Source: Arcobacteraceae bacterium (GTDB taxonomy: Bacteria > Campylobacterota > Campylobacteria > Campylobacterales > Arcobacteraceae). Taken from it: DNA of 64,000 nt. Below are positions 40,944 through 63,145 of the stretch, one piece after another. How positions within the stretch are numbered: position 1 is the stretch's first letter; each line of letters begins with the position of its first letter. The stretch is taken from NCBI GenBank assembly GCA_963662945.1, contig OY759974.1, positions 1,952,001-2,016,000 of the forward strand, in the 5' to 3' direction. The position numbers and the translations under genes are program-made. The notes beneath the pieces are model-generated. The model saw nothing but the letters and a program-made list of their open reading frames with translations, did no database searches and was not told the DNA's origin.

Positions 40944-41132
40944 ATGGCAAAAGAATTAAAGAAAAAAGCAGTAGCGAAAGTAGCTAAAAAAGCAGTAGCA
41001 AAAGCAGGTGTTAAAAAGAAAAATACTAAAAAAGTATTAAAAGTTGTTACAAAAGCAGTAGCAAAAAAATCACCAAAAAAAGTTAAAGTAGCAAAAAAAA
41101 TAGCAAAAAAAGCAGTTAAAAAAGCTGCATAA
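40944..41132 (+). CDS. Histone H1-like Lys/Ala/Val-rich basic protein
   Basis: 26 Lys in 62 aa, KKAVA repeats, AGGAG RBS, TATAAT at 40896, downstream hairpin. Confidence 0.8.
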   Translation: MAKELKKKAVAKVAKKAVAKAGVKKKNTKKVLKVVTKAVAKKSPKKVKVAKKIAKKAVKKAA

Positions 41133-41139
41133 TTATTTG

Positions 41140-41162
41140 GTATAGACTTTCAAGGTCTATAC
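41140..41162 (+). terminator. Hairpin after the histone-like gene
   Basis: GTATAGAC-tttcaag-GTCTATAC. Confidence 0.55.
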
Positions 41163-41178
41163 TATATCTCTTTTCATC

Positions 41179-41211
41179 TGTAACTTAAGTGTTATTTTCT
41201 TCAGATAATAT
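41179..41211 (+). promoter_or_regulatory. Pho-box promoter of the SLC13 permease
   Basis: TGTAAC-TTAAG-TGTTAT, 10 nt, TAATAT. Confidence 0.65.
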
Positions 41212-41306: not shown

Positions 41307-42761
41307 ATGCTTGATACTAGACGACATTTAAAACAATTTTTTGATAAAGCATATACTATGTCTTTACAAGTTGTTTTTGCAAGTTTTTCAATCTCATTTT
41401 TCATTGCTTTTGTAGTTGCTTTTATTCCAGATTATGGGATAGATGCAAATATGACCTATACACTTTTTATTTTACTTTTTGCTGCTGGACTTTGGATAAC
41501 TGAAGCGATACCTGCTTTTGCAGTTTCTTTGTTAGTAATAGCCTTAGAAATGGTTTTGTTAGGTTTTAATAATTTTGATTTTTCTAGTGGAAGTAAAGAG
41601 TGGCAAGTATATTTACAGCCTTGGTCATCGCCACTGATCTTTTTATTTTTAGCTGGTTTTATTATGGCAGCAGCTGCATCAAAAACAAAACTGGATGTTT
41701 GGTTAGCTAAAAAAGTTTTATTTTTTGTTGGTGGACGACCACATAATATTGTCACAGGATTGATTGGTATTACCTATGTGTTGTCGATGTTTGTATCCAA
41801 TACAGCAACAGCTGCTATGATGATGACAATACTTTTACCACTTTTGGGACATATAAAAGAATCAAACCCATTTCAAAAAGCTGTTTTACTCTCAGTGGTA
41901 ATTGGAGCAAATTTAGGAGGAATGGCTACAATCATTGGAACACCACCAAATGCCATTGCAGTGGGAATTTTGGGAGAAAATGCTCCTTCATTTATAGGAT
42001 GGATTGCTTTATCATTACCGCCATCTTTATTGGTAGTTTTTATTTTACGGCTTGTTATTTTAAAAGTATATCCTTCTAGTGAACCTTTTATTGATTTAAA
42101 ATCTATAAAAGAAGTAGAGCATTTTGATGATTCTACTAAACAGTTTTCAAAAATTCCAACAATTCCAAGTTGGAAAAAAAATGTAACAGTAGCTATTTTT
42201 ACTATGACGATTTTATTATGGCTTACGGGACCTTTACATCATATACCTACAACAGTTGTATCTCTTTTACCAATTATTGGTTTTACACTTTTTGGGATTC
42301 TTGATGCAGACGATATGTGTAAAATAAGATGGGATGTGATTATCTTAATTATAGGTGGATTAAGTTTAGGTTTAGCAGTTTCTAAAACAGGACTAGATAT
42401 CTGGCTAGCTACACTTATATCGACAGATGGTATGTCAATACTATGGATTATGTTTATATTTTCCTATTTAGTTGTAGTAATTTCAAATTTTATGAGTAAT
42501 ACTGCTGCTACTAATATTATGCTTCCTATAGTGATTGCAATTGCAACAACAATATCTCAAGAAGCTAGTTATTTGGCAGTTGTAGCTGTTGCACTTAGTG
42601 CTTCTTTTGCTATGAGTTTAGCAGTATCAACACCACCAAATGCTATAATTTTTTCAAGTAAAAAAGTTCAGTCAAAAGACTTTTTAATTTTAGGTATAAT
42701 TACAGCTATTATTGGACCAGTTATAGTAATAGGATGGCTTTATCTTATTCAACTATTTTAA
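41307..42761 (+). CDS. SLC13/DASS-family anion:Na+ symporter
   Basis: WITEAIP, two SNT motifs, GTPPNAI and STPPNAI. Confidence 0.9.
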   Translation: MLDTRRHLKQFFDKAYTMSLQVVFASFSISFFIAFVVAFIPDYGIDANMTYTLFILLFAAGLWITEAIPAFAVSLLVIALEMVLLGFNNFDFSSGSKEWQVYLQPWSSPLIFLFLAGFIMAAAASKTKLDVWLAKKVLFFVGGRPHNIVTGLIGITYVLSMFVSNTATAAMMMTILLPLLGHIKESNPFQKAVLLSVVIGANLGGMATIIGTPPNAIAVGILGENAPSFIGWIALSLPPSLLVVFILRLVILKVYPSSEPFIDLKSIKEVEHFDDSTKQFSKIPTIPSWKKNVTVAIFTMTILLWLTGPLHHIPTTVVSLLPIIGFTLFGILDADDMCKIRWDVIILIIGGLSLGLAVSKTGLDIWLATLISTDGMSILWIMFIFSYLVVVISNFMSNTAATNIMLPIVIAIATTISQEASYLAVVAVALSASFAMSLAVSTPPNAIIFSSKKVQSKDFLILGIITAIIGPVIVIGWLYLIQLF

Positions 42762-42770: not shown

Positions 42771-42803
42771 TGTAATCATTATGTTATTATAAAAGATTAT
42801 AAT
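42771..42803 (+). promoter_or_regulatory. Pho-box promoter of glgP-pgk-mgtE
   Basis: TGTAAT-CATTA-TGTTAT, 10 nt, TATAAT. Confidence 0.75.
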
Positions 42804-42832
42804 TTACAAATCACAAAAACAAGGAAACATAT

Positions 42833-44473
42833 ATGCAGATTGAACAGTATGAGTTTAGTAAAGATTATGACAAGCCAGTAGCTTATTTTTCAATGGAATT
42901 TGCGATCCATCAAGCATTGAAAATATATTCAGGAGGACTCGGATTTTTAGCAGGTTCTCATATGCGAAGCGTATATGATTTAAGACAGAATGTTGTAGGT
43001 ATTGGAATTTTATGGAGTTATGGATATTACGATCAAGCTAGAGATGAAGATAGAAATCTAAAAGTTGAATTTAGAAGAAAGTATTATCATTTTTTAGAAG
43101 AGTTAAATATTAGTGTTACAGTAGATATCAATGGAAAACCTGTTGTTGTAAAAGCATTTATGGTTCCAGCAGAACTTTTTGGTAGTGCACCTTTAATTTT
43201 ACTGACTACTGATGTTCCTGAAAATGATTATCTTTCAAGAACAATTACACATAAACTTTATGATATGCATGAAGAAACACGAATTGCACAAGAAATTGTA
43301 CTTGGTATTGGTGGGGTTAAAGTGCTTGAAGCTTTAAATCATAAAGTTGATATTTATCATATGAATGAAGGACATTCTTTACCTATGGTTTTTGAACTTT
43401 ATCATAAAATTAAAGATTTAGAGCAATTAAAAGAGATGGTAAGATTTACTACTCATACACCAGAAGCTGCTGGAAATGAAGTTCATGATATTCATCTTTT
43501 AAATAAAATGGGTTTTTTTAACTCTACACCATTAGAAGAGGTGCGAGAATTAACGCAAATACAAGATGATAGTTTTAGCTTGACAGTTGCTGCATTAAGA
43601 ATTGCAAAACTTGCAAATGGTGTATCAAAAATGCATGCAAAAGTTGCTACTGATATGTGGAAAGGATATGGCAATATTTGTCCAATTATTCCTATTACAA
43701 ATGCACAAAATAAAAGATTTTGGGCAGATAAACCGATGCTAAGAGCGTTAGATGAACATGAGGGATATGAACTTATAGCTAGAAAAAAACATTTGAAAAG
43801 AGTTTTATTTGGAGAAGTAGCAGACCAAACAGGAAAAATGTTTGATCCAGATATTTTAACAATTGTTTGGGCAAGAAGATTTGCAGAATATAAAAGACCA
43901 GGATTATTAAAATATGATTTTGAAAGATTTGAAAAACTTATCACTCGATCAAAAGAACCTATTCAAATCATTTGGGCAGGAAAGCCATATCCTCATGATA
44001 CAAATGCAATTAATATATTTAATGAATTAACATATATTTCAAGAAACTATAAAAGAGTTGCAGTATTGATTGGATATGAGTTAGAACTGTCAAGACTTCT
44101 TAAAAAAGGTGCTGATATTTGGTTAAATACTCCAAGAATCACAAGAGAAGCCAGTGGTACAAGTGGTATGAGTGCCGCTATGAATGGTGCAATTAATTTT
44201 TCTATTGCAGATGGTTGGCATCCTGAATTTTGTAAAGAAGAGGTAAATAGTTTTACAATCACAGGTGCAGATGCAAGTTTAAGTATCGAGGAACAAGACA
44301 AAAATGATAATAAAAATATGATGGATATATTAGAAAACACAATTATTCCAACATATTATGAAGACCAAACAAAATGGGTTGAGTTGATGAAAAACTCAAT
44401 GAGTGATGTTTTGTTTGAGTTTGATTCAGGTTCTATGGCTCATAAGTATTATGAAAAAATGTATAAATTCTAG
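42833..44473 (+). CDS. glgP: Alpha-glucan (glycogen) phosphorylase, short form
   Basis: AYFSMEF, YSGGLGFLAG, HMNEGH, ARRFAEYKR, EASGTSGM. Confidence 0.93.
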   Translation: MQIEQYEFSKDYDKPVAYFSMEFAIHQALKIYSGGLGFLAGSHMRSVYDLRQNVVGIGILWSYGYYDQARDEDRNLKVEFRRKYYHFLEELNISVTVDINGKPVVVKAFMVPAELFGSAPLILLTTDVPENDYLSRTITHKLYDMHEETRIAQEIVLGIGGVKVLEALNHKVDIYHMNEGHSLPMVFELYHKIKDLEQLKEMVRFTTHTPEAAGNEVHDIHLLNKMGFFNSTPLEEVRELTQIQDDSFSLTVAALRIAKLANGVSKMHAKVATDMWKGYGNICPIIPITNAQNKRFWADKPMLRALDEHEGYELIARKKHLKRVLFGEVADQTGKMFDPDILTIVWARRFAEYKRPGLLKYDFERFEKLITRSKEPIQIIWAGKPYPHDTNAINIFNELTYISRNYKRVAVLIGYELELSRLLKKGADIWLNTPRITREASGTSGMSAAMNGAINFSIADGWHPEFCKEEVNSFTITGADASLSIEEQDKNDNKNMMDILENTIIPTYYEDQTKWVELMKNSMSDVLFEFDSGSMAHKYYEKMYKF

Positions 44474-44479
44474 GAGAAT

Positions 44480-45691
44480 ATGATGTTAAGTAATATTGAA
44501 TTAATGCAATCAGTAAAGTCTTTAAAAGATATAGATATAAAAGATAAAAGAGTTTTAATACGAGTTGATTTTAATGTACCTTTAGATTCTCACAATAATA
44601 TTTCAGATGATAATCGTATCAAAGAAGCACTTCATACTATAAATTATTGTATTGATAATGAAGCTAAGAGTATAGTTTTAGTCACTCATCTTGGAAAACC
44701 TAAAAATGGATTTGAAGAGAAATTTTCATTAAAGCATATTATTAAAAGACTAGAAAGATTACTTGATAGAAAAGTTGAACTTGTTGATAACTTTATGGAG
44801 CAAAAAGAGCTTTTAAACAATGCAACTAATGCAAAAGTATTTTTACTAGAAAACATTAGATTTTTTGAGGGTGAAACTAAAAATGATGATATCCTTTCAA
44901 AAGAATTAGCATCACTTTGTGATGTGTTTGTAAATGATGCTTTTGGAACAAGTCATAGAGCTCATAGCTCAACAGTTGGAATTACAAAATATGTTACTAC
45001 AAAAGTCGCAGGATTTTTACTAAAGCGTGAGATAGATGCTTTTGCTAAAGCACTTTTTAAACCAACACAACCAATATGTCTAGTTGTAGGTGGGGCAAAA
45101 GTTTCTTCAAAAATTACACTTTTAAATAATATCTTGCCTAAAATTGATAAGCTTATTATTGGTGGGGCTATGTCTAATACTTTTTTAAAAGCTATAGGAT
45201 ACGATACAAAAGCTTCATTAGTTGAAGATGAGTTTTTAGATGAAGCAAATAGGATTTTAAAAACTGCACGTGAATTGAATGTGAATGTTTATTTACCAGT
45301 TGATGTGGTTATTACAGATGGTATAGATCATCCAATTGATGTTAAAATAGTACCTTCCCAAGATATGTTAGAAGGTTTTAAAGCTGTTGATATTGGACCT
45401 GCAACTGTGAAGCTTTTTGAAGAAGCAATTGGGTTATCAAATACTATTATTTGGAATGGACCAATGGGTATTTTTGAAGTAGATAGATTTAACAAAGGAA
45501 CCTTTAGAATAGCTCATGCCATAGCAGATACTTATGCTTATAGTATCGTTGGAGGTGGAGATACTGCTAGTGCTGCTGAAAAAGCTGGAGAGAAAGAAAA
45601 TATAAGTTTTATCTCAACTGGTGGGGGAGCAAGTTTGGAACTCCTTGAGGGTAAATTACTTCCAGGATTTGAAAATTTAGAGAAAATCTAA
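44480..45691 (+). CDS. pgk: Phosphoglycerate kinase
   Basis: RVDFNVP, NDAFGTSHRAH, GGAKVSSK, WNGPMG, STGGGASLE. Confidence 0.96.
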   Translation: MMLSNIELMQSVKSLKDIDIKDKRVLIRVDFNVPLDSHNNISDDNRIKEALHTINYCIDNEAKSIVLVTHLGKPKNGFEEKFSLKHIIKRLERLLDRKVELVDNFMEQKELLNNATNAKVFLLENIRFFEGETKNDDILSKELASLCDVFVNDAFGTSHRAHSSTVGITKYVTTKVAGFLLKREIDAFAKALFKPTQPICLVVGGAKVSSKITLLNNILPKIDKLIIGGAMSNTFLKAIGYDTKASLVEDEFLDEANRILKTARELNVNVYLPVDVVITDGIDHPIDVKIVPSQDMLEGFKAVDIGPATVKLFEEAIGLSNTIIWNGPMGIFEVDRFNKGTFRIAHAIADTYAYSIVGGGDTASAAEKAGEKENISFISTGGGASLELLEGKLLPGFENLEKI

Positions 45692-47037
45692 TGAATATCA
45701 AAGCTATCGATCTGTATCTTCAAAAGCTTAAAAATGGTGTAAAAGATCATGAAAGAATTGATGATGCAGATTTAGCTGATTATTTAGAGGATGTAAAACA
45801 AAAAGATGAGGATAAGTTTTTTGAATATCTGAATTCTTTACCATTAAAAATTCGTGCAGAAACTTTTATCGAACTACCAACTCCTTTTCAAATTGATTTG
45901 ATTTTAAAATATGATGCAAAAGGTTTGGCTGATATTATTGAAGTTTTAGATAGTGATGATGCAACAGATCTTTTTATAGCAATTACTAAAACAGATAAAG
46001 AAAAAGAGGAAAGTATCTTTTCTCTTTTAAGCGATACAAAACAAAAAACAATCGAAAAACTTATTAGTTATGAAAGCAATGAAGCTGGTTCGTTAATGCA
46101 AACAGAGATACTCAAAGTATCTAATTTTAGAACCATAGCTTATGCAATTGAAAAACTAGGAAAGTTAAAAGAAAAAGGGATAGGAACGGTTCAAAGTGTA
46201 TTTGTTACAGACAATACAGGAAGACTTATAAAATCAATCTCTATTGATGATTTAATTTTAGAAAAGACAGATAAAACTTTTGATGAAATTTTAGAAAAAT
46301 ATCCAGAATCTTATTCTGTAATCTCACATGATTCTGTAGATAATGTTGTAAATATCATAGAAAAATATGATTTAACAACTTTAGCAGTAGTAGATAGAAA
46401 AGGGCATCTTATAGGGAGAATTACCCATGATGATGTTATTGATATTATGCAAAAAAGAGCTACGCAACAAATCTATAATCTTAATAAAATTAATGCTGAT
46501 GAACATATCTCTGAAGAGTTTTCAAAAACAAGTAAGACCAGAGCCGTATGGCTTACGATAAATTTAGTCAATGCTATTATTGCTTCATTGGTAATAGGGC
46601 TTTTTTCTCACACTATAGAAACAATAGTTGCACTAGCAGTTCTTATGCCAATAGTTGCAAATATGGCTGGTACTGCATCTGTACAAACTATGACAGTAGT
46701 TGTAAGACAGATGGCTTTAGGTGAAATTGAGTTTAGTGATATTAAACCAATATTTATAAAAGAGATAAATATTGCAGCTATTAATGGCCTTTTATTTGGA
46801 AGTTTAGGTGCTGTTATGGCTTATGTAAGATTTGAAAATTGGCTTCTTTCTCTTTCTATTGCATTGGCAATGCTAATAAGTTTTTTATGTGCAGGTGTTT
46901 TAGCTGTAGTTGTACCAATGGTTTTGAAAAAAGTTAATTTAGACCCAGCTGTTGCAAGTTCTGTTGTAGTCTTAACTTTAGTGGATATTGTTGGATTTTT
47001 TAGTTTTTTATGGTTAGCGCAGGTAATAATGCTATAA
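45691..47037 (+). CDS. mgtE: Magnesium transporter MgtE
   Basis: MgtE N-domain, CBS pair, TM domain with DPAVASS and TLVDIVG. Confidence 0.92.
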   Translation: MNIKAIDLYLQKLKNGVKDHERIDDADLADYLEDVKQKDEDKFFEYLNSLPLKIRAETFIELPTPFQIDLILKYDAKGLADIIEVLDSDDATDLFIAITKTDKEKEESIFSLLSDTKQKTIEKLISYESNEAGSLMQTEILKVSNFRTIAYAIEKLGKLKEKGIGTVQSVFVTDNTGRLIKSISIDDLILEKTDKTFDEILEKYPESYSVISHDSVDNVVNIIEKYDLTTLAVVDRKGHLIGRITHDDVIDIMQKRATQQIYNLNKINADEHISEEFSKTSKTRAVWLTINLVNAIIASLVIGLFSHTIETIVALAVLMPIVANMAGTASVQTMTVVVRQMALGEIEFSDIKPIFIKEINIAAINGLLFGSLGAVMAYVRFENWLLSLSIALAMLISFLCAGVLAVVVPMVLKKVNLDPAVASSVVVLTLVDIVGFFSFLWLAQVIML

Positions 47038-47044
47038 TAACAAA

Positions 47045-47097
47045 AATAACTGTTTTATAACTTTTATAACTGTTTTGTAACCATTGTATGTTAGAAT
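47045..47097 (+). promoter_or_regulatory. Tandem Pho-box promoter of DUF4912 and the GH57 branching enzyme
   Basis: AATAAC-TGTTT-TATAAC, then TATAAC-TGTTT-TGTAAC, 10 nt, TAGAAT. Confidence 0.68.
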
Positions 47098-47121
47098 AGA
47101 TTTATAAATGCGGGGAGTAAT

Positions 47122-47742
47122 ATGAATAGTCAACTAATAAAAGATAGTTTAGAAGAAAATAATTTTTCAAGTAGTACTCACACTATTGAAGTGATATCAT
47201 TTGATAGTAAACAAGTAGCACGAAAAGAATATCCAATACCACATAGATACTATAAAGATCAACTCGTATTACTACCAATAAACAGTAAAAAATTCTATAT
47301 GTACTGGGAATTTACAGATACATTATTACAAAAATATCATCTAGAAAATGTTACTCAGATAAAATTTAAAGTAGTTGACAGCGAAGCACATACTATAAAA
47401 GATATTGATTGCTTGGGAGAGTTGGGTGAATATTTTGTCAATGACTTAAAATATACATCAAAAATAAAAGTAGTTGCAGGATATTATAAAGATGGTGTAT
47501 TTATAGAAATAATGCATTCAAATCAGATTGGTTCATTTAATACTGAGATAAATTATAAAGGTGCTGACAAGCTTGTATATCTAAAAAAAGAGCGAGGATT
47601 TACTGAAATTATTCGTTCATCATTACAACACTTTACATTAGGAATGTCATCAGCTTCTTATATCAAAGAGATAGAAAGATTGCAAGAGTTTTCAAAATTA
47701 TCAAAAGATTTATTGTCTTCACATACATTAGGGGAAAAATAA
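47122..47742 (+). CDS. DUF4912-domain protein
   Basis: IPHRYYKDQLVLLPIN..FYMYWE pattern; precedes the GH57 branching enzyme. Confidence 0.75.
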   Translation: MNSQLIKDSLEENNFSSSTHTIEVISFDSKQVARKEYPIPHRYYKDQLVLLPINSKKFYMYWEFTDTLLQKYHLENVTQIKFKVVDSEAHTIKDIDCLGELGEYFVNDLKYTSKIKVVAGYYKDGVFIEIMHSNQIGSFNTEINYKGADKLVYLKKERGFTEIIRSSLQHFTLGMSSASYIKEIERLQEFSKLSKDLLSSHTLGEK

Positions 47743-47743
47743 T

Positions 47744-49324
47744 ATGTTAAAAGGTTATTGGATACCAGTACTTCATTCTCATCTACCGTTTGTTAAACAT
47801 CCTCAATATGAGTACTTTTTAGAAGAACATTGGCTTTTTGAAGCAATCAGCGAATGTTATATTCCGTTATTGAAAAATTTAAAAAGATTATATGATGAGG
47901 GAGTTGATTTTCGATTAACAATTTCTGTTACTCCTCCATTGGCAGAGATGTTAGATGATAGACATCTTATGGAAAAATATGAAAGATATCTTGATAGACA
48001 AATTGAACTTGGGGTTAAAGAGTGTCAAAGAACACAAGATGATGAGGTTTATAGAGGCATTGCTCATTTTTACAATGATAAATTTGTAGAGATAAAAGAG
48101 TTCTTTACAAACTTTTTACAAAGAAATGTTTTGAACGGTTATAGATTTTTTAATGATTTAGGAAAAATTGAAGTTATTACTTGTGGAGCAACTCATGGTT
48201 TTTTACCACTTTTAAGTGTTAATGAAAAAGTAGTTGAAGTGCAAATAGAAGTTGCAGTTGCAGCACACACAAAACATTTTAAAAAACCACCAAAAGGGAT
48301 TTGGCTTCCTGAATGTGCCTATTATGATGGACTTGATAAGATTTTAAAAGCAAATGGGATAGAGTTTTTCTTTGTTGATTCTCATGCTTTAATTTATGGA
48401 GAACCAACAGCTTTAAATGGTGTATATGCTCCTATTTATACGGAGCAAGCAGTTGCAGCATTTGCACGAGACCCACACTCTGCAAAACAAGTATGGAGTT
48501 CAAAAGAAGGGTATCCTGGAGATTTTAATTATCGTGATTTTTATAGAGATATTGGGTACGATTTAGACTATGAATATATAAAAGATTATATTGATCCAGA
48601 TGGTACGAGAGTTTTTACAGGGTATAAATATCATAAGGTTACAGGAGACTCAGATTATAAAGAGGTATATAATCCTTATATTGCAAGTGAAACTACAAAA
48701 TCTCATGCAGCGGATTTCCACTATAAAAGAGAACAGCAGTTTGAACATTTAGGGCAATTTATGGATAGGACTCCAATGGTTGTTTCCCCTTATGATGCGG
48801 AATTATTCGGTCACTGGTGGTTTGAAGGACCTGAGTTTTTATATAATTTATTTAAAGAGATTGAGACACATCATGTTTTTAAAGCTGTAACACCTTTAGA
48901 ATATCTTACAATGTATCCCCAAAATCAAGTTATCAATCCCAGTGCATCTTCTTGGGGAGATGAGGGGTATTATGATGTGTGGTTAAATGAAGGAAATTCT
49001 TGGATATATAGACACCTTCATAATATGGCAGATGATATTATAAATCTTGCAAATATTTACCATAATGGTGCAGACTTTAATACTACGAGAATATTAAATC
49101 AAATGACAAAAGAATTACTCTTAGCACAAAGTAGTGATTGGGCATTTTTAGTGACAACAAAAACAGCAGTTGAGTATAGTATTTTAAGAACACAAGAACA
49201 TATTTCTAACTTTACAAGTTTAAAAAATATGATTAATGGAAATATAGATTTTGAACTTCTTGAAGAGTTAGAGTATAAAAATTCTATTTTTAATTTTGTA
49301 GATTATAAAATCTTTGCATCATAA
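47744..49324 (+). CDS. GH57 1,4-alpha-glucan branching enzyme (DUF1957)
   Basis: LHSHLPFV, GIWLPEC, PYDAELFGHWWFEG, LLAQSSDWAF. Confidence 0.92.
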   Translation: MLKGYWIPVLHSHLPFVKHPQYEYFLEEHWLFEAISECYIPLLKNLKRLYDEGVDFRLTISVTPPLAEMLDDRHLMEKYERYLDRQIELGVKECQRTQDDEVYRGIAHFYNDKFVEIKEFFTNFLQRNVLNGYRFFNDLGKIEVITCGATHGFLPLLSVNEKVVEVQIEVAVAAHTKHFKKPPKGIWLPECAYYDGLDKILKANGIEFFFVDSHALIYGEPTALNGVYAPIYTEQAVAAFARDPHSAKQVWSSKEGYPGDFNYRDFYRDIGYDLDYEYIKDYIDPDGTRVFTGYKYHKVTGDSDYKEVYNPYIASETTKSHAADFHYKREQQFEHLGQFMDRTPMVVSPYDAELFGHWWFEGPEFLYNLFKEIETHHVFKAVTPLEYLTMYPQNQVINPSASSWGDEGYYDVWLNEGNSWIYRHLHNMADDIINLANIYHNGADFNTTRILNQMTKELLLAQSSDWAFLVTTKTAVEYSILRTQEHISNFTSLKNMINGNIDFELLEELEYKNSIFNFVDYKIFAS

Positions 49325-49340
49325 GATAAAAGATTTACTT

Positions 49341-51347
49341 TTATCTTATCTCTAGTTGTAAACTATTTTGTTCTTTATTTGTAAAAGGATAGATAAATCC
49401 AAAAGTAAGACCTTGATTTGTTAAATCAACACCTTGCTCACTTTGACTTACACTATCAAGTGTACAAATAACTATCTCTATCTCTTTTGAAGTAGTGAAA
49501 ATCAACGTTTTCTCTAAATAACTATCATAAATTTCTAAAGAATTTGTTTTTATATTGTAAGGCTCTGTTTTAAGTTGTTCAGCGATGAATTTACCATTGA
49601 AAGTAAGATTTTCTAAACTTGCAAAGTGCAGATTCCATTCTTGAATGTATTGTAAAGGTTCGTTGTATTGTGCATTTACAACAATATCTAAAGTAATTGT
49701 GTTGCCTATAAACTTGTACTCTTTTTTTATTTTAGTATCATATTTTGTGTCTAAATATATTCCACCACTCCTTTGGAGTTGTAAACTGTTTTCAGTTGAT
49801 TTTATTAACTCAAAAGGTTGGTTAGTAAAGTCTGAAATTTCATGAAAATTATTATGACAAAAATCTAAAGTAGATGTTTCTTTTGACACTATATGGTCAA
49901 TAGCAGATTTTTTAAAATACCAATCTGTAGTTAAGAATATATCTTCGCTTACTTTTAATTTATTGTCATGAATAGTAGCAATCTCATCACTTACAAGTTC
50001 AACTTCAACTATCTCTTCGTGGTTTACTTCAATTTTACTATGATAAGCTTCTTCATATCTTGTAAGTGTATTTTGAAGATTGAAGTTTTTATCTAAAACA
50101 TCTAGTTCAAAAATTTGCCCACCATTTTTTAAAGAGATGATTGTAAGAAGTGTTTGTGTATTGTATTTATATTCTTTGTAACCATTACAATCTATGTCTA
50201 TTATTTCGTGTTTAGAAGGAGAAATGTTTTCACATTCTATGATATGTTTATAAGCATTATCCCTTAAATTTGGAAGATAAACTCCCCCAAAAACACCATG
50301 CCACAATACATCATTACATTGTGCCTTATAAAGTGCATCTATGTATTCTGGCTGTAGTGTTTGCTTTTTAGATAACTCTGTATATCTCTTATGAATCCAG
50401 TTACTCTCTTGATATTTTGTTAAAAAGTTTTTCCAAGTTCCACCTCTAATAAATTGTGTTGCCTGAGGGTTGTTTTCTAAAAGATGTTCTAAAGTAAGTG
50501 TATCTTGACTAGTTAAAGACCATTCTCCCATTTCGTAGTAAGAAACAGTTGGTAGGTAACTTAATCCTATTGGTGGATTGTTGAGATAAAATTCTTCAAA
50601 AGTATCAACACTTATATTTTTATTTTCCAATGTTTGTTTGAAAAAATCTCGCAACCACTCTTTTTCATAAACACTTTCATAAGTTTTTGGCCAGATACCA
50701 AACTTTTCACCATCATCGAAGATTATGGCTGCATTTTTTCCTGAAATATTAGAGAATGATTCTAAAATATTTTCTGTTTTTTCCAAACTATAAAATGGAA
50801 TTGCATATCTTAAAGCTTTATTGATAGGAAAGAGGGCGATTATTTCTCCCCCATCTTCTGTTAAGAAATATCCATTAAGATTTTCAGTTTTGATACCACT
50901 TGTAAGAAGATGATAATCATCAACAACAACATATTCTATACCACACTCTTTTAAATCTTTGATTATAGAATTATCCCAAACTCTCTCAGTTAACCATAAT
51001 CCTTTTGGTTGTTGGTTAAAATGTTTTTTAATATAACTATTGAGTTTTTGTATTTGTCCAATTCTATCTTTTGAAGAGATGGCACTAAGGACTGGTTCAT
51101 AATATCCACCAGTAAAAAACTCTAACTGATTTGATAAAGACTTCATTAAAGTGAAAAGTTCTTCATCATGTGTCTCAATATACTCTAAAAGCCAACCACT
51201 ATAGTGAACAGAACATTTAAATTTGGGGAACTCTTTTAAAACTTTAAAAAATGGTTTATAGGATTTTTCAATCGCTTCATCTAAAACCCAATCAAAATTA
51301 TCAACAGGTTGATGACAGTGGATTCCAAAAAGTAATGATGTAGTCAT
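49341..51347 (-). CDS. GH57 alpha-amylase / 4-alpha-glucanotransferase
   Basis: HCHQPVDNF, GLWLTERVW, DDGEKFGIWP, AQCNDVLWHGVFGG; start at the RBS-preceded ATG 51347. Confidence 0.9.
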   Translation of the reverse strand: MTTSLLFGIHCHQPVDNFDWVLDEAIEKSYKPFFKVLKEFPKFKCSVHYSGWLLEYIETHDEELFTLMKSLSNQLEFFTGGYYEPVLSAISSKDRIGQIQKLNSYIKKHFNQQPKGLWLTERVWDNSIIKDLKECGIEYVVVDDYHLLTSGIKTENLNGYFLTEDGGEIIALFPINKALRYAIPFYSLEKTENILESFSNISGKNAAIIFDDGEKFGIWPKTYESVYEKEWLRDFFKQTLENKNISVDTFEEFYLNNPPIGLSYLPTVSYYEMGEWSLTSQDTLTLEHLLENNPQATQFIRGGTWKNFLTKYQESNWIHKRYTELSKKQTLQPEYIDALYKAQCNDVLWHGVFGGVYLPNLRDNAYKHIIECENISPSKHEIIDIDCNGYKEYKYNTQTLLTIISLKNGGQIFELDVLDKNFNLQNTLTRYEEAYHSKIEVNHEEIVEVELVSDEIATIHDNKLKVSEDIFLTTDWYFKKSAIDHIVSKETSTLDFCHNNFHEISDFTNQPFELIKSTENSLQLQRSGGIYLDTKYDTKIKKEYKFIGNTITLDIVVNAQYNEPLQYIQEWNLHFASLENLTFNGKFIAEQLKTEPYNIKTNSLEIYDSYLEKTLIFTTSKEIEIVICTLDSVSQSEQGVDLTNQGLTFGFIYPFTNKEQNSLQLEIR

Positions 51348-51372
51348 AATTCCCCCTTTTTTGAGACATTGT

Positions 51373-51405
51373 ATAATAATCAAGTTTAGTAACATATCAA
51401 TTACG
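51373..51405 (-). promoter_or_regulatory. Pho-box promoter of the GH57 glucanotransferase
   Basis: CGTAAT-TGATA-TGTTAC, 10 nt, TATTAT. Confidence 0.6.
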
Positions 51406-51426
51406 AGGATAATTGTAAAGCTAATT

Positions 51427-51459
51427 TGTAATTAAGTAGTAATCAATAATGAGTAATAT
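51427..51459 (+). promoter_or_regulatory. Pho-box promoter of the REC-kinase gene
   Basis: TGTAAT-TAAGT-AGTAAT, 10 nt, TAATAT. Confidence 0.68.
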
Positions 51460-51486: not shown

Positions 51487-52680
51487 ATGACGGAATCTTT
51501 GAGTAGGCTCGTAGAGTTTACAAAAAATTTAACACTTCTATATGTGGAAGATGAGCAGTATTCTAGAGAACAAACTTTGGGTATTTTAGAACTTTTTTTT
51601 GATAAAATTATTATTGCTATTGATGGTCAAGATGCCTTAGAAAAATATAATACACATACCATAGATTTTATTATTACAGATATTAATATGCCAAATATAA
51701 ATGGTTTGAAATTTATTGAAGTTGTACGAGATTCTAATAAATATATCCCAATAGTGATAGTTTCAGCACATAGTGATACAGATTTTTTTCTTGAATCTAT
51801 CAAGTTAGGTGTAGATGGATATTTGATTAAGCCAATAGAATCAGAGCAATTTATCTATCAAATAAGTAAAAATTTACATAATCTATATCTACAAAATCAA
51901 TTGAAAGATTATCATAAAAATCTAGAGATTCAAGTACAAAAGCAAGTTGAAGAGTTAAGAGAAAAAGATAAAATACTGATTCAACAAACCAAACTAGCAA
52001 CCATGGGTGAGATGATGGATGTTATAGCGCATCAATGGAAACAGCCTATTAACATTATAGCTATGCATACTTCACTTATTTGGGAATTATATGGAGAGTA
52101 TAATCTTCCAATAAATTCAAAAGATATTGAAAAATGTTATTCTTCTGTAAACGTACAAGTAAAACATCTTGTAAAAACTCTTGATGATTTTAGAAAGTTT
52201 TTTAGACCAAATGAAACGATGGAAATAATAAAGTTAAAATCTCTTTTAGATTCGGTAATGGTATTAATACATGATGATTTGATTAAAAATCTAATCACTG
52301 TAGAGTTAGATTGTGATGAGAGTATAGAGATTTATGTTAATGTAAGTGAGATAAAACATATCTTTATAAACCTTATCAATAATTCAAAAGATGCTTTTAA
52401 TCAAAATGAGATAGAAAAACGAAAAATACAAATTGCTTGTAAACATGATAATAACTCTGTGATAGTTCATGTTGCTGATAATGCTTGTGGAATACCAGAA
52501 GCAATTATAGGAAATATTTTTGAACCAAATTTTACTACAAAAGGTGAAATCGGAGGCACTGGTATTGGTTTGTATATGTCACGATTTATCGCTAAGAAAA
52601 ATAATGTAACAATAGATGTAGAAAACCTAGATAATGGGGCAAATTTTATTTTAGAATTTCAAAAAGCTAATTTGGAATAG
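51487..52680 (+). CDS. Soluble hybrid REC-histidine kinase
   Basis: YVEDE..TDINMP REC domain, IAHQWKQP, GTGIGLY; no TM. Confidence 0.9.
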   Translation: MTESLSRLVEFTKNLTLLYVEDEQYSREQTLGILELFFDKIIIAIDGQDALEKYNTHTIDFIITDINMPNINGLKFIEVVRDSNKYIPIVIVSAHSDTDFFLESIKLGVDGYLIKPIESEQFIYQISKNLHNLYLQNQLKDYHKNLEIQVQKQVEELREKDKILIQQTKLATMGEMMDVIAHQWKQPINIIAMHTSLIWELYGEYNLPINSKDIEKCYSSVNVQVKHLVKTLDDFRKFFRPNETMEIIKLKSLLDSVMVLIHDDLIKNLITVELDCDESIEIYVNVSEIKHIFINLINNSKDAFNQNEIEKRKIQIACKHDNNSVIVHVADNACGIPEAIIGNIFEPNFTTKGEIGGTGIGLYMSRFIAKKNNVTIDVENLDNGANFILEFQKANLE

Positions 52681-54343
52681 TTTCTGAGGGTTTCCCTGTA
52701 TAGTACCCTTGGGAGTATTCTATCCCCATAGATTTTACTTTTTCATATATTTCTTGACTACTGACAGATTCTGCGATAACTTTGGCGTGTAAAGATTTCG
52801 CAAATTGTATCATAGATTCTACAACTGCCTCTATTTTTTTATCAGATAGTAAACTCTCTATATAATATCCATCAATCTTTATATAATCTATTTTAATACT
52901 ATGAAGTTTTTGGATATTGCTATGGTTTGTACCAAAATCATCAATTGCAATTTGAAATCCCAAACTATTCAGAAGAGAGATGTTTTTTATGATGTTCTCA
53001 TTTTCTAAAATTGTTACAGATTCAACTATCTCAAAAATGATTTTTGATGGTTTGATATTGTGTTTTGAAGAACAATTTAATACAAAAGATATAAAACTAT
53101 CATCCAATAAATCATCTTGAGTGATGTTAATTGCAATATTAAGATTTTTATTTTTTATATTTTTAAAAACTTTAGAGGTCATAACTTTTGTAATATCTGG
53201 AAGTAGTTGAAATAATTTGGCATTTTCCAGATAGTAATAAGGTTTACTTACTCTATTCATTTCTAATACTCTTGCAAGGGCTTCATAGGTTTCAGTTTTT
53301 CCTGTTTGATTGTTTACTATGGGTTGATAATAAGGGATGATAGCATCAGTTTTTAATACTTTTTTTATTTTTTTCAACCATTTAAGATTGTCATCTCTTC
53401 TGTGTGTGAGTAGAGAATTACTTGAATAAAAACCATATTTATCTTTTCCTATTTGACGTGCTTCTTTGATGGCAATATGTGCTTTTCTTAAAATATCATC
53501 ACCTCTGCCATGTCCAACTCCAACAGTACATGATAAAGCAAAATCATCAATATTTGTGTCTATTTTTGTATTTTCAAGAGTTTTAATGATATTTATTACA
53601 AATGCTTTGAGTTCATCTTCTGTGATTTTAGAGAATAAAAATGCAAACTCATCTGATACAACACGAAATAGTTGTGAGTTTTCAGTATTTTGTTGATGTA
53701 ATAGTTCAGATATTTTAACGATAACTTCATCCCCAATACCATATCCATATTTACAGTTTATTACATCAAAATTATCAATGTTGACTAAAATAAGATGGTA
53801 ATAGTTAGTACTATGAAGATAGATGTCTAGTTTATTTTTATTTTCTAAATTTGTCAGTTTATCTATAAAAATATTTGGATTTGTATTACTAAGAGTTAAA
53901 GTATTTGTTTGAGTATTTAACTCTTTGTTTTTGATATATTGTATATAGTTGGTAGCTTTATTTAAGATATTAATCATATTTGTAGTTACAAGAGGTTTGA
54001 GTAAAATATCATTTATCCCCAACTCCAAGGCTGTTTTATAAGTATTTAAATCTTGATGGGCAGATACCATAACAATATATTCCAAAGGATTGATGGCTTT
54101 AAGCTCTTTAATTAAATCAAAACCTGATAACAATGGCATATAAATATCTGTAAAAACAAGATCAATAGAATCTAAATATGTAGTATAAAGTTCTAAAGCT
54201 TCTTGTCCATTTTGTGCCATATAAACATTATTAAAAAAAAGTTCAAGTAATCCTTGTAACTCTATTCTTGATTGTTCATCATCCTCTAAACATAATACAT
54301 TCAATCTTTTTGTATTAAAAGTGAGTTTTTTAATCTCATTCAT
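52667..54343 (-). CDS. REC-GGDEF(degenerate)-EAL protein, probable c-di-GMP phosphodiesterase
   Basis: REC domain, degenerate VSDEF, YQPIV, YEALAR, DDFGT. Confidence 0.88.
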   Translation of the reverse strand: MNEIKKLTFNTKRLNVLCLEDDEQSRIELQGLLELFFNNVYMAQNGQEALELYTTYLDSIDLVFTDIYMPLLSGFDLIKELKAINPLEYIVMVSAHQDLNTYKTALELGINDILLKPLVTTNMINILNKATNYIQYIKNKELNTQTNTLTLSNTNPNIFIDKLTNLENKNKLDIYLHSTNYYHLILVNIDNFDVINCKYGYGIGDEVIVKISELLHQQNTENSQLFRVVSDEFAFLFSKITEDELKAFVINIIKTLENTKIDTNIDDFALSCTVGVGHGRGDDILRKAHIAIKEARQIGKDKYGFYSSNSLLTHRRDDNLKWLKKIKKVLKTDAIIPYYQPIVNNQTGKTETYEALARVLEMNRVSKPYYYLENAKLFQLLPDITKVMTSKVFKNIKNKNLNIAINITQDDLLDDSFISFVLNCSSKHNIKPSKIIFEIVESVTILENENIIKNISLLNSLGFQIAIDDFGTNHSNIQKLHSIKIDYIKIDGYYIESLLSDKKIEAVVESMIQFAKSLHAKVIAESVSSQEIYEKVKSMGIEYSQGYYTGKPSETIPN

Positions 54344-56675: not shown

Positions 56676-56685
56676 AGTTTAAAGG

Positions 56686-57567
56686 TTATTCTATATATTT
56701 ATAAATATCTTCCATAATGGCATAATTTGTACTATTTGTTTTTTTGTACATTATTGTTTTACCAAGTCTTGGTACAAAGTTTTTAGGCATACTTATAAGT
56801 GCATCTTGTAAAGAGTTTTTGAGTTCTTGTGATAAACTTTTTTGAACTATTATTGGAGATTTAGGTATATCATCTGATTCCCAAATAATTATATTTGTTT
56901 TTGTGGAAATTTTTTTATCTTCTATAAGTTGATGATAAAACATCTCAGCAGTAGCTGCCATCGGAATAATATTATTTGCAACAACTAATTCAGCAGCATC
57001 ATGTGTACCTACAAAAGTGATTTGTTTAAAATAATCTTCAATTTTAATATTTGCTTTTTTCATATAATAGTTTGGTACAGCGTATCCTGAAGTAGAACTT
57101 TCATCTGTAAAAGCTAATATCCATTTTTGTTTATATTTTTCAAGTTTTGATTTTAAAATATTCATGCCAGCTTCACCTTTTAAAGGTGTTGAGATATTGA
57201 GTGTTTTTGCTACCTCTGGTGTAACAACAAAGAGTGATTTATAAGTTGCAAAACCATCTTTAGTTACCCCAGTTACTATTGGTTCAACTTCAGCTACTTT
57301 TTTTGTTAGGACATAAGAAAATGGTCCTACAAATGCAAAATCAAGTTCATTTTTTGAAAATTTATTGATAATTTCGCCATAACTATTTTCGTAATTAATT
57401 TTTATACATCTATGAATTTTTTTTTCAAGGTATTTTTTCCAATCTTGATAATAACTTTCTATTTCTGAGATATTAACATAAGGTATAACACCATATCTTA
57501 GACACTTAGTATCTGCAAGAATATTAGTTATTAAAAATACAGAGAGTAAAAAAACTACTTTTGTCAC
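56686..57567 (-). CDS. PhnD-like phosphate/phosphite/phosphonate-binding protein
   Basis: Signal peptide, GPFSYV, SSTSGY, GTHDA. Confidence 0.85.
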   Translation of the reverse strand: MTKVVFLLSVFLITNILADTKCLRYGVIPYVNISEIESYYQDWKKYLEKKIHRCIKINYENSYGEIINKFSKNELDFAFVGPFSYVLTKKVAEVEPIVTGVTKDGFATYKSLFVVTPEVAKTLNISTPLKGEAGMNILKSKLEKYKQKWILAFTDESSTSGYAVPNYYMKKANIKIEDYFKQITFVGTHDAAELVVANNIIPMAATAEMFYHQLIEDKKISTKTNIIIWESDDIPKSPIIVQKSLSQELKNSLQDALISMPKNFVPRLGKTIMYKKTNSTNYAIMEDIYKYIE

Positions 57568-62164: not shown

Positions 62165-62197
62165 ATTATAAAAGAGTAGTATTACAGTTTAATTACA
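62165..62197 (-). promoter_or_regulatory. Pho-box promoter of the PFOR operon
   Basis: TGTAAT-TAAAC-TGTAAT, 10 nt, TATAAT. Confidence 0.8.
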
Positions 62198-62325: not shown

Positions 62326-63144
62326 TTAATAGTTTTGTAGTAGTTTTGTCCCTTGTAGAGAACCTTCATTGAGTGTAGATAAAGTTATAGAAAGTTTTTC
62401 TCTCTTAAAAGCACTTTGTAAAAATTGTTTTTCTAAAAAGCTTTTAATTTTGGGATGGTTTCCAACGCTACCACCTAATACTAAATGGTCAAAGTCAAAT
62501 AGATTTAAAGCAGTATGAAAAGCGTGTGATAATCCATTATAAAAATTTTCAATGATTATATTTGCATTGTCAGTATTGAGTGATTCTAGTAAATCTAATC
62601 TACTAAATTCTTTATCTATTTTAAAATAAGAGCACCAATGTTTAAGACCATTTCCACTTACATACAGTTCTAAACAATCGTCTCTTCCACATCCACAAGT
62701 AAATGGAGATTTTTTAAAAGGGATATGTCCTATCTCTCCAGCAGTGTTATTTGCACCTGTTACTAATCTGTTATTATCTATAAAAGCACTTCCAAACCCA
62801 GTTCCTATATAAAAAACTGCTAAAGATTTTACTTGCAAAGCATGATGTTCTGCAATTGCTGCACAATTTAAATCATTGTCAATAGCTACTGAAATTTTGT
62901 ATTTTTCCTCAATGTATTTTTTTACATCAAAGTTTGCTGTATGCGCATTTGGAGAGGAAATTATTTTTCCATTTCGTACCTGCCCAGCAAAAGATATACC
63001 TATAAAAGATATATTTGGATATTTTTTTATTATCTCATCAAGGAATTTTTTTAAATCTATTGTATCACTTGATAGTGTTGTTACGGAAGATTCATCAAAT
63101 TGATATCGAAAACTTGTTCCACCAAAATCAATATACAGATTCAT
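62326..63144 (-). CDS. ROK-family sugar kinase (glucokinase-like)
   Basis: IDFGGT, DNDLNCAA, GTGFG, GEIGH, CGCGRDDCLE; start at ATG 63144. Confidence 0.9.
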   Translation of the reverse strand: MNLYIDFGGTSFRYQFDESSVTTLSSDTIDLKKFLDEIIKKYPNISFIGISFAGQVRNGKIISSPNAHTANFDVKKYIEEKYKISVAIDNDLNCAAIAEHHALQVKSLAVFYIGTGFGSAFIDNNRLVTGANNTAGEIGHIPFKKSPFTCGCGRDDCLELYVSGNGLKHWCSYFKIDKEFSRLDLLESLNTDNANIIIENFYNGLSHAFHTALNLFDFDHLVLGGSVGNHPKIKSFLEKQFLQSAFKREKLSITLSTLNEGSLQGTKLLQNY

Positions 63145-63145
63145 T

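Follow-up and report, generated by a model that had tools for sequence, protein, structure and literature searches.

In a 64,000-nt stretch of an Arcobacteraceae genome, hereafter the window, three glycogen transcription units (glgP-pgk-mgtE, DUF4912-GH57 branching enzyme and GH57 4-alpha-glucanotransferase) are each preceded by a direct repeat that is likely to be a true cis-element of the local Pho regulon, through which the OmpR/PhoB-family regulator linked to the pst genes would activate transcription at low Pi. Because the motif found before pst genes also occurs at promoter spacing before glycogen and second glycolysis genes, phosphate supply is probably the switch for both storing and breaking down sugar. 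The initial annotation had already placed the glycogen units under Pho-box promoters, an assignment now favored by a motif shared with pst, phoBR, PPK2 and olsF, by the activator-like geometry, and by conservation across genera.

A Direct Repeat at Fixed Distance from the -10 Hexamer

The motif combines the direct repeat TGTAAY-N5-TGTAAY with a downstream TAnnnT -10 hexamer, the distance between the two being exactly 10 nt. Intergenic matches of the repeat with at most one mismatch number 41 at spacer 5 versus 8-16 at spacers 2-4 and 6-9, the excess being confined to the spacer that gives an 11-bp period, and 13 of these 41 lie inside the window. TAnnnT is found exactly 10 nt downstream in 27 of the 63 intergenic matches scoring at least 9.5 bits, with 16 of the 27 combined sites falling within genome positions 1,962,000-2,058,000. 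The exact spacing recurs at glgP, DUF4912, glucanotransferase, the response-regulator/kinase gene, PFOR, gap, fba, pstB, pstC, PstS and PPK2. No -35 element is seen at these promoters, the box occupying that position, and metabolic and transport promoters share a single geometry, with no second class. The G+C content of the genome is 29%.

Sites were scored with two position weight matrices (PWMs), a first one trained on 20 sites from which the three glycogen boxes were left out, and a canonical one made of pst, ppk2, olsF and foreign pstS sites only. The three glycogen boxes score well with these matrices, from which they are excluded, and all of them lie 10 nt from TAnnnT, in keeping with the correct spacing attributed to them at the outset. 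In the box-alone test against 100 dinucleotide shuffles of intergenic DNA, 55 intergenic matches were observed at >=9.6 bits versus 14.0 expected, and 11 at >=20.8 bits versus 0.03. When TAnnnT at +10 was also required, the intergenic counts were 28 versus 2.0 in shuffles at >=6.85 bits, 23 versus 0.63 at >=9.55 bits, and 16 versus 0.04 at >=14.55 bits; the canonical PWM at >=8 bits plus the -10 hexamer gave 23 observed versus 1.45 expected.

Table 1. Features of the window, with the predicted boxes and -10 hexamers; positions count from its first nucleotide.
Feature	Position	Strand	Remarks
Second regulator/kinase pair	13223-15380		directly after phoR
PhoR-like kinase	15456-16856	-	NCBIfam
PhoB-like regulator	16834-17505	-	NCBIfam; PDB relatives
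phoU	17543-18223	-	NCBIfam
pstB	18216-18983	-	NCBIfam
Reference Pho box of pstB-phoU-phoB-phoR	19030-19046	-	0 mismatches; 22.2 bits; -10 hexamer TACAAT
Possible Pho box of DASS/CitMHS anion symporter	41179-41195	+	15.8 bits; -10 hexamer TAATAT; canonical PWM 5.4 bits only
DASS/CitMHS anion symporter	41307-42761		
Pho box of glgP	42771-42787	+	TGTAAT-CATTA-TGTTAT; <=1 mismatch; 20.8 bits, intergenic rank 13
-10 hexamer of glgP	42798-42803	+	TATAAT; 10 nt past box
glgP, alpha-glucan (maltodextrin/glycogen) phosphorylase, short archaeal-like type	42833-44473	+	TIGR02094 451 bits (cut-off 191.7); PF00343; ATG 42833
pgk, phosphoglycerate kinase, second copy	44480-45691	+	PF00162
mgtE, Mg2+ transporter, one of three copies	45691-47037	+	TIGR00400 234 bits (cut-off 232.75)
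Pho box of DUF4912	47065-47081	+	TATAAC-TGTTT-TGTAAC; 9.6 bits, rank 61 of intergenic matches
-10 hexamer of DUF4912	47092-47097	+	TAGAAT; 10 nt past box
DUF4912 protein	47122-47742	+	PF16258; ATG 47122
GH57 1,4-alpha-glucan branching enzyme	47744-49324	+	PF03065 + PF09210
GH57 4-alpha-glucanotransferase	49341-51347 (ORF to 51395)	-	PF09095, PF03065, PF09094
-10 hexamer of glucanotransferase	51378-51373	-	TATTAT; 10 nt past box
Pho box of glucanotransferase	51405-51389	-	CGTAAT-TGATA-TGTTAC; 6.9 bits; weakest of set
Pho box of response-regulator/histidine-kinase gene	51427-51443	+	TGTAAT-N5-AGTAAT; 14.6 bits, rank 29
-10 hexamer of response-regulator/histidine-kinase gene	51454-51459	+	TAATAT
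Hybrid receiver/HATPase signalling protein, divergent from glucanotransferase	51487-52680	+	PF00072 + PF02518
PFOR, pyruvate:ferredoxin/flavodoxin oxidoreductase	58567-62136	-	PF01855, PF01558, PF10371
Pho box of PFOR	62181-62197	-	TGTAAT-N5-TGTAAT, 10 nt, TATAAT; 0 mismatches; 21.3 bits
ROK-family sugar kinase (glucokinase-like)	62326-63201	-	PF00480; closes gap-to-glgA cluster
glgA, 3' part in window	63146-64000, on to 64573	-	full ORF L033:146-1573; TIGR02095 501.8 bits (cut-off 328.45)

Identity of the Motif and of Its Regulator

Judged by the genes it precedes, the repeat is the local Pho box, because it stands upstream of pst, ppk2 and olsF here and of pstS in other genera. The top-scoring sites lie upstream of pstB-phoU-phoBR, pstC(A), PstS (21.1 bits), a PPK2-PPK2 operon (20.7 bits) and an EAL/GGDEF-olsF operon, and the same repeat is present before foreign pstS in 5/5 genomes of four other genera, ending 41-44 nt upstream of the start codon. 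The pst-linked regulator has PhoB as its top family match and OmpR/PhoB-family regulators as best PDB relatives, and it reaches 168.4 bits against the PhoB equivalog TIGR02154, under the cut-off of 296.2; the case for PhoB is thus made by the gene neighborhood and by the motif upstream of the pst genes. Regarding ppk or ppk2, which the initial annotation proposed to look for beyond the 64 kb, three PPK2 genes occur in the genome, two of them forming the operon named above, but PPK1 (PF02503) was not found in this 99.99% complete genome, the search having matched 7 control genomes.

The Three Glycogen Units

With the canonical PWM, the boxes of glgP, DUF4912 and glucanotransferase score 18.6, 13.1 and 9.6 bits, respectively. 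The pgk gene of the first unit shares 49% identity with the housekeeping copy at genome position 1425246, and the DUF4912 gene of the second always adjoins the GH57 branching enzyme gene in the synteny of the compared loci. For the glucanotransferase, ATG 51347 is the likely start rather than 51395, since an AAGGGGG ribosome site is conserved in the relatives L001 and L003 and ortholog alignments begin there. The case for its box is mostly the -10 spacing together with the stronger L003 ortholog (12.8 bits); in L001 the box is absent, the gene there lying directly behind a DHOD-like gene. The box of the divergent response-regulator/kinase gene also has an L003 ortholog, at 15.2 bits.

The Duplicate Glycolysis and the glgA Cluster

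What had been noticed for three units extends further, with more predicted boxes at the response-regulator/kinase gene, at PFOR and, beyond the window, at the heads of the divergent gap-pfk-...-glgA-ROK and fba-eno-pyk clusters. The island carries second copies of gap, pgk, fba and eno, and mgtE also has paralogs; the housekeeping copies of all five carry no box, the best score within 300 nt upstream being <=4.6 bits.

The initial annotation located glgA and a glucokinase at the window end, where the 3' part of glgA and a glucokinase-like ROK kinase are indeed encoded, and it proposed to look for a box upstream of glgA. None lies directly before this gene, the nearest one heading its cluster before gap (15.2 bits); a hairpin stands between gap and pfk, past which transcription would have to read through to reach glgA. 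The GH57-type glycogen set is complete, comprising GH57 branching enzyme, GH57 glucanotransferase, GlgA and alpha-glucan phosphorylase. The proposed use of GH57 rather than GH13 enzymes applies to the island, with its three GH57 enzymes; one GH13 gene lies elsewhere in the genome. As for glgC, to be sought beyond the 64 kb, a glgC-like gene lies just outside the window, in the glgA-ROK cluster. Its product is an 830-aa NTP-transferase/phosphoglucomutase fusion which, from its sequence, is a relative in fused form, but its 115.6 bits against GlgC TIGR02091 fall under the cut-off of 424.9. Another protein of the cluster matches PDB 1Z84 and 2H39 over its full length with 184 and 179 bits, versus 57 bits for E. 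coli GalT 1HXP, and by this comparison is nearer to ADP-glucose phosphorylase (At5g18200-like GalT-family HIT enzyme) than to GalT proper. Both former entries are given as ADP-glucose phosphorylase in a portion of bioRxiv 10.64898/2026.09.13.751320.

Conservation Across Genomes

The boxes of glgP (18.6-21.8 bits) and DUF4912 (8.4-16.6 bits) are present in 4/4 close relatives with diverged flanks, each one forming an invariant block in 5/5 aligned genomes. Among 20-kb loci of other genera, box and -10 hexamer occur <=120 nt upstream of an island gene in 10/11 genomes, and in 7/11 loci at >=12 bits, with gene order differing among loci. L027 has no box at any island operon head, the box of L029 is weak (7.8 bits), and none was seen in L005. 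In other genomes the island retains its boxes though far from pstS. In other families of the order, whose own Pho box may differ, no such box lies <=1.5 kb of glgP in 18/18 loci.

Proposed Mechanism and Alternative Explanations

Low Pi would lead to phosphorylation of the OmpR/PhoB-family regulator from the pstB-phoU-phoB-phoR operon, and the phosphorylated protein, presumably PhoB, would bind TGTAAY-N5-TGTAAY as a head-to-tail dimer. The box would stand in for a -35 element, at 10 nt from the -10 hexamer, and transcription would be activated. The self-contained module so switched on would include, for glycogen, glgP, branching enzyme, glucanotransferase, the third GH57 enzyme, glgA, the nucleotidyltransferase/phosphoglucomutase fusion, the ADP-glucose-phosphorylase-like protein and the ROK kinase and, for the rest, a second lower glycolysis (gap, pgk, fba, eno, pyk) plus pfk, PFOR and MgtE. 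The module would operate in this genome and in related Arcobacteraceae with the island, and under Pi-limited growth carbon would be re-routed via glycogen and toward ATP formed at the substrate level. Its content is unusual for a Pho regulon. P-sparing storage can be hypothesized as its purpose, and Mg2+ might act as a counter-ion of polyphosphate. Nonetheless, the regulon includes a full second lower glycolysis, pfk, two pyruvate kinases and PFOR, so that breakdown is represented as well as storage, and both glycogen phosphorylase and GAPDH are Pi consumers, so that it is not obvious what a cell short of Pi would gain.

That the matches arose by chance in a genome of 29% G+C, or reflect a generic AT-rich promoter feature without regulatory meaning, is hardly credible. 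The boxes of DUF4912 and glucanotransferase are indeed weak by box score alone, at a level where 14.0 of 55 matches are expected, but the spacer control, the composite box and -10 shuffles, the invariant footprints amid diverged flanks, the reappearance of the box at operon heads of other genera despite rearrangement, and the housekeeping paralogs devoid of box all speak against it. A different OmpR-family regulator might instead bind the repeat in response to another signal (energy, carbon or general starvation), with pst, ppk2 and olsF merely sharing it. The many OmpR-family paralogs of the genome (~30 tblastn matches to the regulator), the regulator/kinase pair directly behind phoR, the pst-linked regulator scoring under the PhoB equivalog cut-off, and the amount of carbon and energy metabolism in the regulon would all suit this reading. 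We consider it unlikely, however, given that (i) the core sites are the textbook Pho set, namely pstS, pstCA, pstB-phoU, the regulator's own operon, ppk2 and olsF (phosphorus-free ornithine lipid synthase), (ii) the same box stands upstream of pstS in all five other-genus genomes, and (iii) the half-site TGTAAY is similar to CTGTCAT, the motif given for E. coli in PMC4415409.

Very unlikely, in our opinion, is that PhoB binds these sites but represses the glycogen and glycolysis promoters, or has mixed effects. Occlusion of RNA polymerase is conceivable in principle for a box over the -35 position, and PMC4415409 mentions repression of glycogen catabolism and gluconeogenesis by Streptomyces coelicolor PhoP. 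Against this, the geometry is identical to that of the pst, pstS and ppk2 promoters, whose genes low Pi would be expected to switch on, and no second geometry class parts metabolic from transport promoters.

Comparison with Known Systems

The E. coli Pho box lies at the -35 position, 10 nt before the -10 hexamer, with the same spacing as here, and the E. coli Pho regulon likewise includes pstSCAB-phoU and the regulator's own operon. To our knowledge, no whole glycogen/glycolysis/PFOR island belongs to the E. coli PhoB regulon, and a literature search found none. Direct repeats of 11-bp period and, under the proposed mechanism, a winged-helix response regulator bound head-to-tail are also common features, while the half-site TGTAAY departs from CTGTCAT (PMC4415409) and the regulator lies under the PhoB equivalog cut-off. 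S. coelicolor PhoP is similar as a phosphate response regulator reaching key glycogen and sugar-phosphate enzymes, but it belongs to another phylum, uses a GTTCACC-type box, has no dedicated paralogous pathway, and acts by repression, whereas the geometry here suggests activation. In Salmonella, glycolysis and glycogen proteins increase at low Pi, as stated in part of PMC6027262; Desulfovibrio alaskensis forms glycogen-like granules under Pi limitation (PMC5193443), and glycogen formation by Corynebacterium glutamicum in the same situation is cited within a passage of PMC5193443. Unlike in these three organisms, the wiring here appears direct, with a box at each operon head.

Polyphosphate/glycogen cycling (PAO/GAO) also couples polyphosphate enzymes (here PPK2) and glycogen enzymes in one programme, but PPK1 is lacking among the genes found here, and the coupling would be transcriptional, via one regulator, rather than a demonstrated feast/famine cycle. 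The box of Campylobacter jejuni PhosR differs in sequence from the present one, and we know of no glycogen genes in the PhosS/PhosR regulon, none having emerged from a literature search. Within this phylum, PhosS/PhosR is the two-component system that responds to phosphate; it is named in PMC4415409 and called non-classical in the title of a paper cited there.

A tentative and rather doubtful extension is that some Arcobacteraceae hold a transferable, self-contained second pathway (GH57 glycogen, duplicate EMP glycolysis and PFOR) wholly wired to the phosphate regulator as a phosphate-homeostasis device, with a polyphosphate/glycogen economy under one regulator. Hexose phosphates would be drained to glycogen at low Pi via the ADP-glucose-phosphorylase-like enzyme adjoining glgA, whose predicted activity (glucose-1-P + ADP -> ADP-glucose + Pi) would be pulled by low Pi and free Pi without ATP cost; PPK2 would meanwhile draw on polyphosphate, and stored glucan would feed ATP formation by the duplicate glycolysis and PFOR.

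Genes and Boxes at the Locus

The genome under study, G000, consists of a single contig (C1) of 2.50 Mb with 29% G+C; the window covers positions 1952001-2016000 of it, and the nearest public relatives of the window are Arcobacteraceae MAGs. Pfam and NCBIfam profile matches bore out the gene calls of the initial annotation, and its claim that three glycogen units each carry a correctly spaced box also held, a direct repeat being followed exactly 10 nt on by a -10-like hexamer in every case. Within glgP-pgk-mgtE, the first two genes are separated by 6 nt and the last two overlap. Since the gene model came from a simple longest-ORF caller, "intergenic" is approximate here, and the glucanotransferase box falls within the longest ORF. 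Nonetheless, alignments of the orthologs begin only at residue 12-17, and the in-frame ATG at 51347 sits behind a conserved AAGGGGG ribosome site; this box is therefore placed upstream of the likely true start.

Coordinates of genes and Pho boxes in the window
Feature	Position	Strand or direction	Sequence or remark
alpha-glucan phosphorylase (glgP)	42833-44473		
pgk	44480-45691		
mgtE	45691-47037		
DUF4912	47122-47742		
GH57 branching enzyme	47744-49324		
GH57 4-alpha-glucanotransferase	49341-51395	minus	ORF
PFOR	58567-62136		
ROK kinase	62326-63201		
glgA, 3' part	from 63146 onward		
glgP box	42771-42787		TGTAAT-CATTA-TGTTAT, then TATAAT after exactly 10 nt
DUF4912 box	47065-47081		TATAAC-TGTTT-TGTAAC, then TAGAAT after exactly 10 nt
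glucanotransferase box	51405-51389	minus	CGTAAT-TGATA-TGTTAC, then TATTAT after exactly 10 nt
receiver/kinase box	51427-51443	opposite direction	TGTAAT-TAAGT-AGTAAT, for the divergent gene at 51487
PFOR box	62181-62197		perfect repeat, 21.3 bits

Divergent back-to-back pairs of Pho boxes, about 16 nt apart, are frequent, as seen between the glucanotransferase and receiver/kinase genes (51386-51446) and between gap and fba (11111-11171 of L033, a piece of G000 that reaches past the window), and the same layout is displayed by the related loci L001, L026 and L028. Both in the window and in the related locus L003, a signalling block (51487-57567) containing a receiver/kinase hybrid, a receiver-GGDEF-EAL protein, a PAS kinase and a PhnD-like binding protein lies between the glucanotransferase gene and the DHOD-like and PFOR genes.

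Identity of the Motif as a Pho Box

When TGTAAY-N(x)-TGTAAY was searched with at most one mismatch, 41 intergenic matches appeared at x = 5 versus 8-16 at x = 2-4 and 6-9, and 13 of the 41 fall in the window. The best sites stand before pstB-phoU-phoB-phoR, pstC-pstA and PstS (20 kb past the window), as well as before a PPK2-PPK2 operon, a porin of the Campylobacter MOMP family and an operon ending in the ornithine-lipid synthase gene olsF, which is textbook Pho regulon content. The same repeat precedes pstS in all five genomes inspected from four other genera, ending 41-44 nt ahead of the start codon. The regulator encoded with the pst genes belongs to the OmpR/PhoB family and has relatives in the PDB; its best NCBIfam match is PhoB, below the equivalog cut-off (168 vs 296 bits). 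PhoB-type activation is described as relying on direct repeats with head-to-tail binding, the conserved E. coli motif being CTGTCAT (PMC4415409), whereas the half-site in G000 is TGTAAY; from its direct repeats and geometry, the architecture here is predicted to be of the PhoB type.

Several further genes of the window are also preceded by boxes. The top box of the genome (24.6 bits, at 26490) lies ahead of an 817-aa methyl-accepting chemotaxis protein (23997-26450, minus strand), whose position may point to phosphate-regulated chemotaxis. Among the strongest is also the box at 28618-28634 (21.1 bits, TATAAT at +10), ahead of a 558-aa ORF (26920-28596, minus strand) that lacks a Pfam or NCBIfam match and whose ESM Atlas neighbours, clusters of HD-domain phosphohydrolases at very high score, may serve as a lead. 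Upstream of pstC, the expected position of pstS is taken by two ORFs (132 and 160 aa; 23090-23930, minus strand) without family match, preceded by strong boxes at 23974 and 23078 (19.0 and 23.5 bits, respectively). The recognisable PstS is encoded about 20 kb past the window (G000 2036382-2037443). A lysine/alanine-rich ORF of 62 aa (40944-41132, plus strand) is similar to a histone-H1-like DNA-binding protein; after it come a terminator-like hairpin (41138-41164) and then the possible box of a DASS symporter. Elsewhere in G000, box-like sites precede two candidate members of the regulon, the ATP synthase b/b'/delta/alpha genes (1939407; 17.8 bits, without a -10 hexamer at +10) and a Proton_antipo_M/NADH-dehydrogenase-like cluster (2101941; 18.7 bits, TATATT at +10).

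Statistical Strength of the Glycogen Boxes

For the SIGNIFICANCE of the glycogen boxes, a position weight matrix (PWM) was built from 20 sites, leaving out the three glycogen boxes and the receiver/kinase box. It gave 20.8 bits for the glgP box (rank 13 among intergenic matches), 14.6 bits for the receiver/kinase box (rank 29), 9.6 bits for the DUF4912 box (rank 61) and 6.9 bits for the glucanotransferase box. For the box score alone, 100 dinucleotide shuffles of the intergenic DNA predict 14.0 sites at a threshold of 9.6 bits, where 55 were observed; raising the threshold to 14.6 bits gave 26 vs 1.2, and at 20.8 bits the counts were 11 vs 0.03. TAnnnT occurs exactly 10 nt downstream in 27 of 63 intergenic matches scoring at least 9.5 bits, and this fixed spacing is information independent of the box score; with box and -10 hexamer taken together, the shuffles predict 2.0 sites at a threshold of 6.85 bits, where 28 were observed, and 0.63 at 9.55 bits, where 23 were observed. 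A second, canonical-only PWM, made from six canonical Pho sites of G000 and five foreign pstS sites, scored the glgP, DUF4912 and glucanotransferase boxes at 18.6, 13.1 and 9.6 bits, respectively, and found 23 sites with -10 hexamer at 8 bits or more vs 1.45 expected. Considering (i) the excess over shuffled DNA, (ii) the -10 spacing, and (iii) the canonical-only scores, all three glycogen boxes must be more than chance, the glucanotransferase one being the least secure.

Iterative refinement of the PWM at a fixed 9-bit threshold drifted from 68 to 121 to 181 sites and was discarded, so the first and the canonical-only PWMs were used. Generic scans for sigma-70 promoters (68 sites vs 64.4 in shuffles) and terminators (100 vs 93.7) were uninformative.

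An Accessory Pathway Beyond the Window

Just past the window, a co-directional cluster comprises gap, pfk, a 602-aa pyruvate-kinase-like protein, an 830-aa nucleotidyltransferase/phosphoglucomutase fusion, a third GH57 protein, a GalT-like protein, glgA and ROK. At its head stands a 15.2-bit box, and the divergent fba-eno-pyk carries one of 18.6 bits. Together with the glycogen units and PFOR, these clusters form an island. Its gap, pgk, fba, eno, FBPase and mgtE genes duplicate others of G000, with which they share 35-65% identity. No box was found within 300 nt upstream of the housekeeping gap-pgk, fba, eno and FBPase or of the two other mgtE genes (best score at most 4.6 bits), and a pyk-like gene has an 8.2-bit match upstream. 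Thus, from the contents of the island and its boxes, the regulon comprises a complete accessory pathway, not scattered genes. 

Directly upstream of glgA there is no box, the nearest being that at the head of the eight-gene cluster. We only infer that glgA depends on it, because a hairpin (10-bp stem, 8-nt loop; L033 10031-10058, in an 83-nt gap) separates gap and pfk; this element may set gap apart from the seven downstream genes, either as a partial terminator or as a stabiliser. glgC and ppk, neither of them visible in the window to the initial annotation, were sought beyond it. The former is represented by a fused relative that scores below the glgC cut-off, while genome-wide PPK1 was not found and three PPK2 genes were, two of them adjacent under a 20.7-bit box (G000 144463-146559, in L041, outside the window) and the third at 90839. 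The proposed use of GH57 rather than GH13 enzymes describes the island well, with its three GH57 proteins, although one GH13 gene lies far away in the genome. 

Two other phosphate-related readings of island enzymes were discarded. The island pfk is not a P-sparing, PPi-dependent enzyme, as it belongs to the ATP-dependent subfamily NF002872 (339 bits vs a cut-off of 253), and the ROK kinase is not supported as a polyphosphate glucokinase (26-bit match vs a cut-off of 250).

Conservation and Reach

In four close relatives (GlgP 88-91% identical), which are kin and not independent samples, the glgP box and its -10 hexamer stand as an invariant block between diverging flanks, and the DUF4912 box is likewise invariant between diverged flanks. 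L003 keeps the divergent pair, with 12.8 bits for the glucanotransferase and 15.2 bits for the receiver/kinase gene. On the contrary, the signalling genes are missing in L001, where the glucanotransferase gene comes right after the DHOD-like gene and has no box, and L005, a locus with 81% identity that is labelled Sulfurovum, shows no box.

GlgP has a patchy distribution in the family sample, where 15 genomes out of 81, from 7 of the 22 genera, carry it (G000 counted). In 20-kb loci from 11 GlgP carriers of other genera, gene order varies, with arrangements such as ROK-glgP-DUF4912-GH57 or gap-pfk-...-glgA-glgP-pgm. In ten of these 11 loci, the 120 nt ahead of at least one island gene contain a box with -10 hexamer, and in seven of them at 12 bits or more; the box of L029 is weak, and L027 has none within that distance. 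Extrapolating from the G000 shuffle rate (2.0 per 158 kb of intergenic DNA), well under one chance site would be expected in the intergenic DNA of all 11. 

Of 151 genomes sampled across the order, 74 carry a glgP ortholog. None of the 18 loci inspected in other families showed a TGTAAY-type box with -10 hexamer within 1.5 kb of glgP, this box type being that of Arcobacteraceae and perhaps not theirs; an attempt to derive their own Pho box through a PstS query matched none of five genomes, and the upstream DNA of their pstC loci was too short for the purpose.

Proposed Mechanism and Biological Meaning

The cis-elements share a fixed geometry, are kin to the pst promoters, and are conserved. 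At low Pi, the phosphorylated regulator would bind the boxes and recruit RNA polymerase to promoters without a -35 element, which would induce the island jointly with phosphate uptake, PPK2 and the synthesis of P-free lipids. The gain for the cell is not readable from the sequence, because enzymes of both synthesis and breakdown are co-regulated. 

The GalT-like protein adjoining glgA (L033 1588-2562, minus strand) matches PDB 1Z84/2H39, reported as Arabidopsis ADP-glucose phosphorylase (bioRxiv 10.64898/2026.09.13.751320), with 184 bits vs 57 bits for E. coli GalT, and a GalT-family protein directly precedes glgA in 8 of the 11 other-genera loci, with none seen in L022 and L023. Its predicted reaction, glucose-1-P + ADP <-> ADP-glucose + Pi, would go towards glycogen when Pi is scarce, a direction compatible with the P-sparing idea.

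That Pi limitation and glycogen are linked is established at the level of physiology, having been described for Salmonella, with most proteome changes PhoB-independent (PMC6027262), and for Corynebacterium and Desulfovibrio (PMC5193443; Corynebacterium as cited there). Full-text literature searches turned up no report of glg or glycolysis genes being directly controlled by PhoB in Campylobacterota, nor of a Pho box in Arcobacteraceae, for which a defined one is now available. The usual concern of Pho regulons is acquiring or sparing phosphorus by means of transporters, phosphatases and P-free lipids. The regulon of G000 appears to include directly a complete pathway for carbon storage and sugar breakdown, which the genome carries in addition to its housekeeping enzymes. 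If so, the old observation of glycogen build-up under phosphate-limited bacterial growth would gain a clean genetic handle, GAPDH, PGK and phosphorylase would become candidate low-Pi isoenzymes, and an uncharacterised bacterial ADP-glucose-phosphorylase-like enzyme with Pi-dependent direction would be predicted. Phosphate supply would then be predicted to alter the carbon flow and the C:P ratio of marine and sediment Arcobacteraceae.
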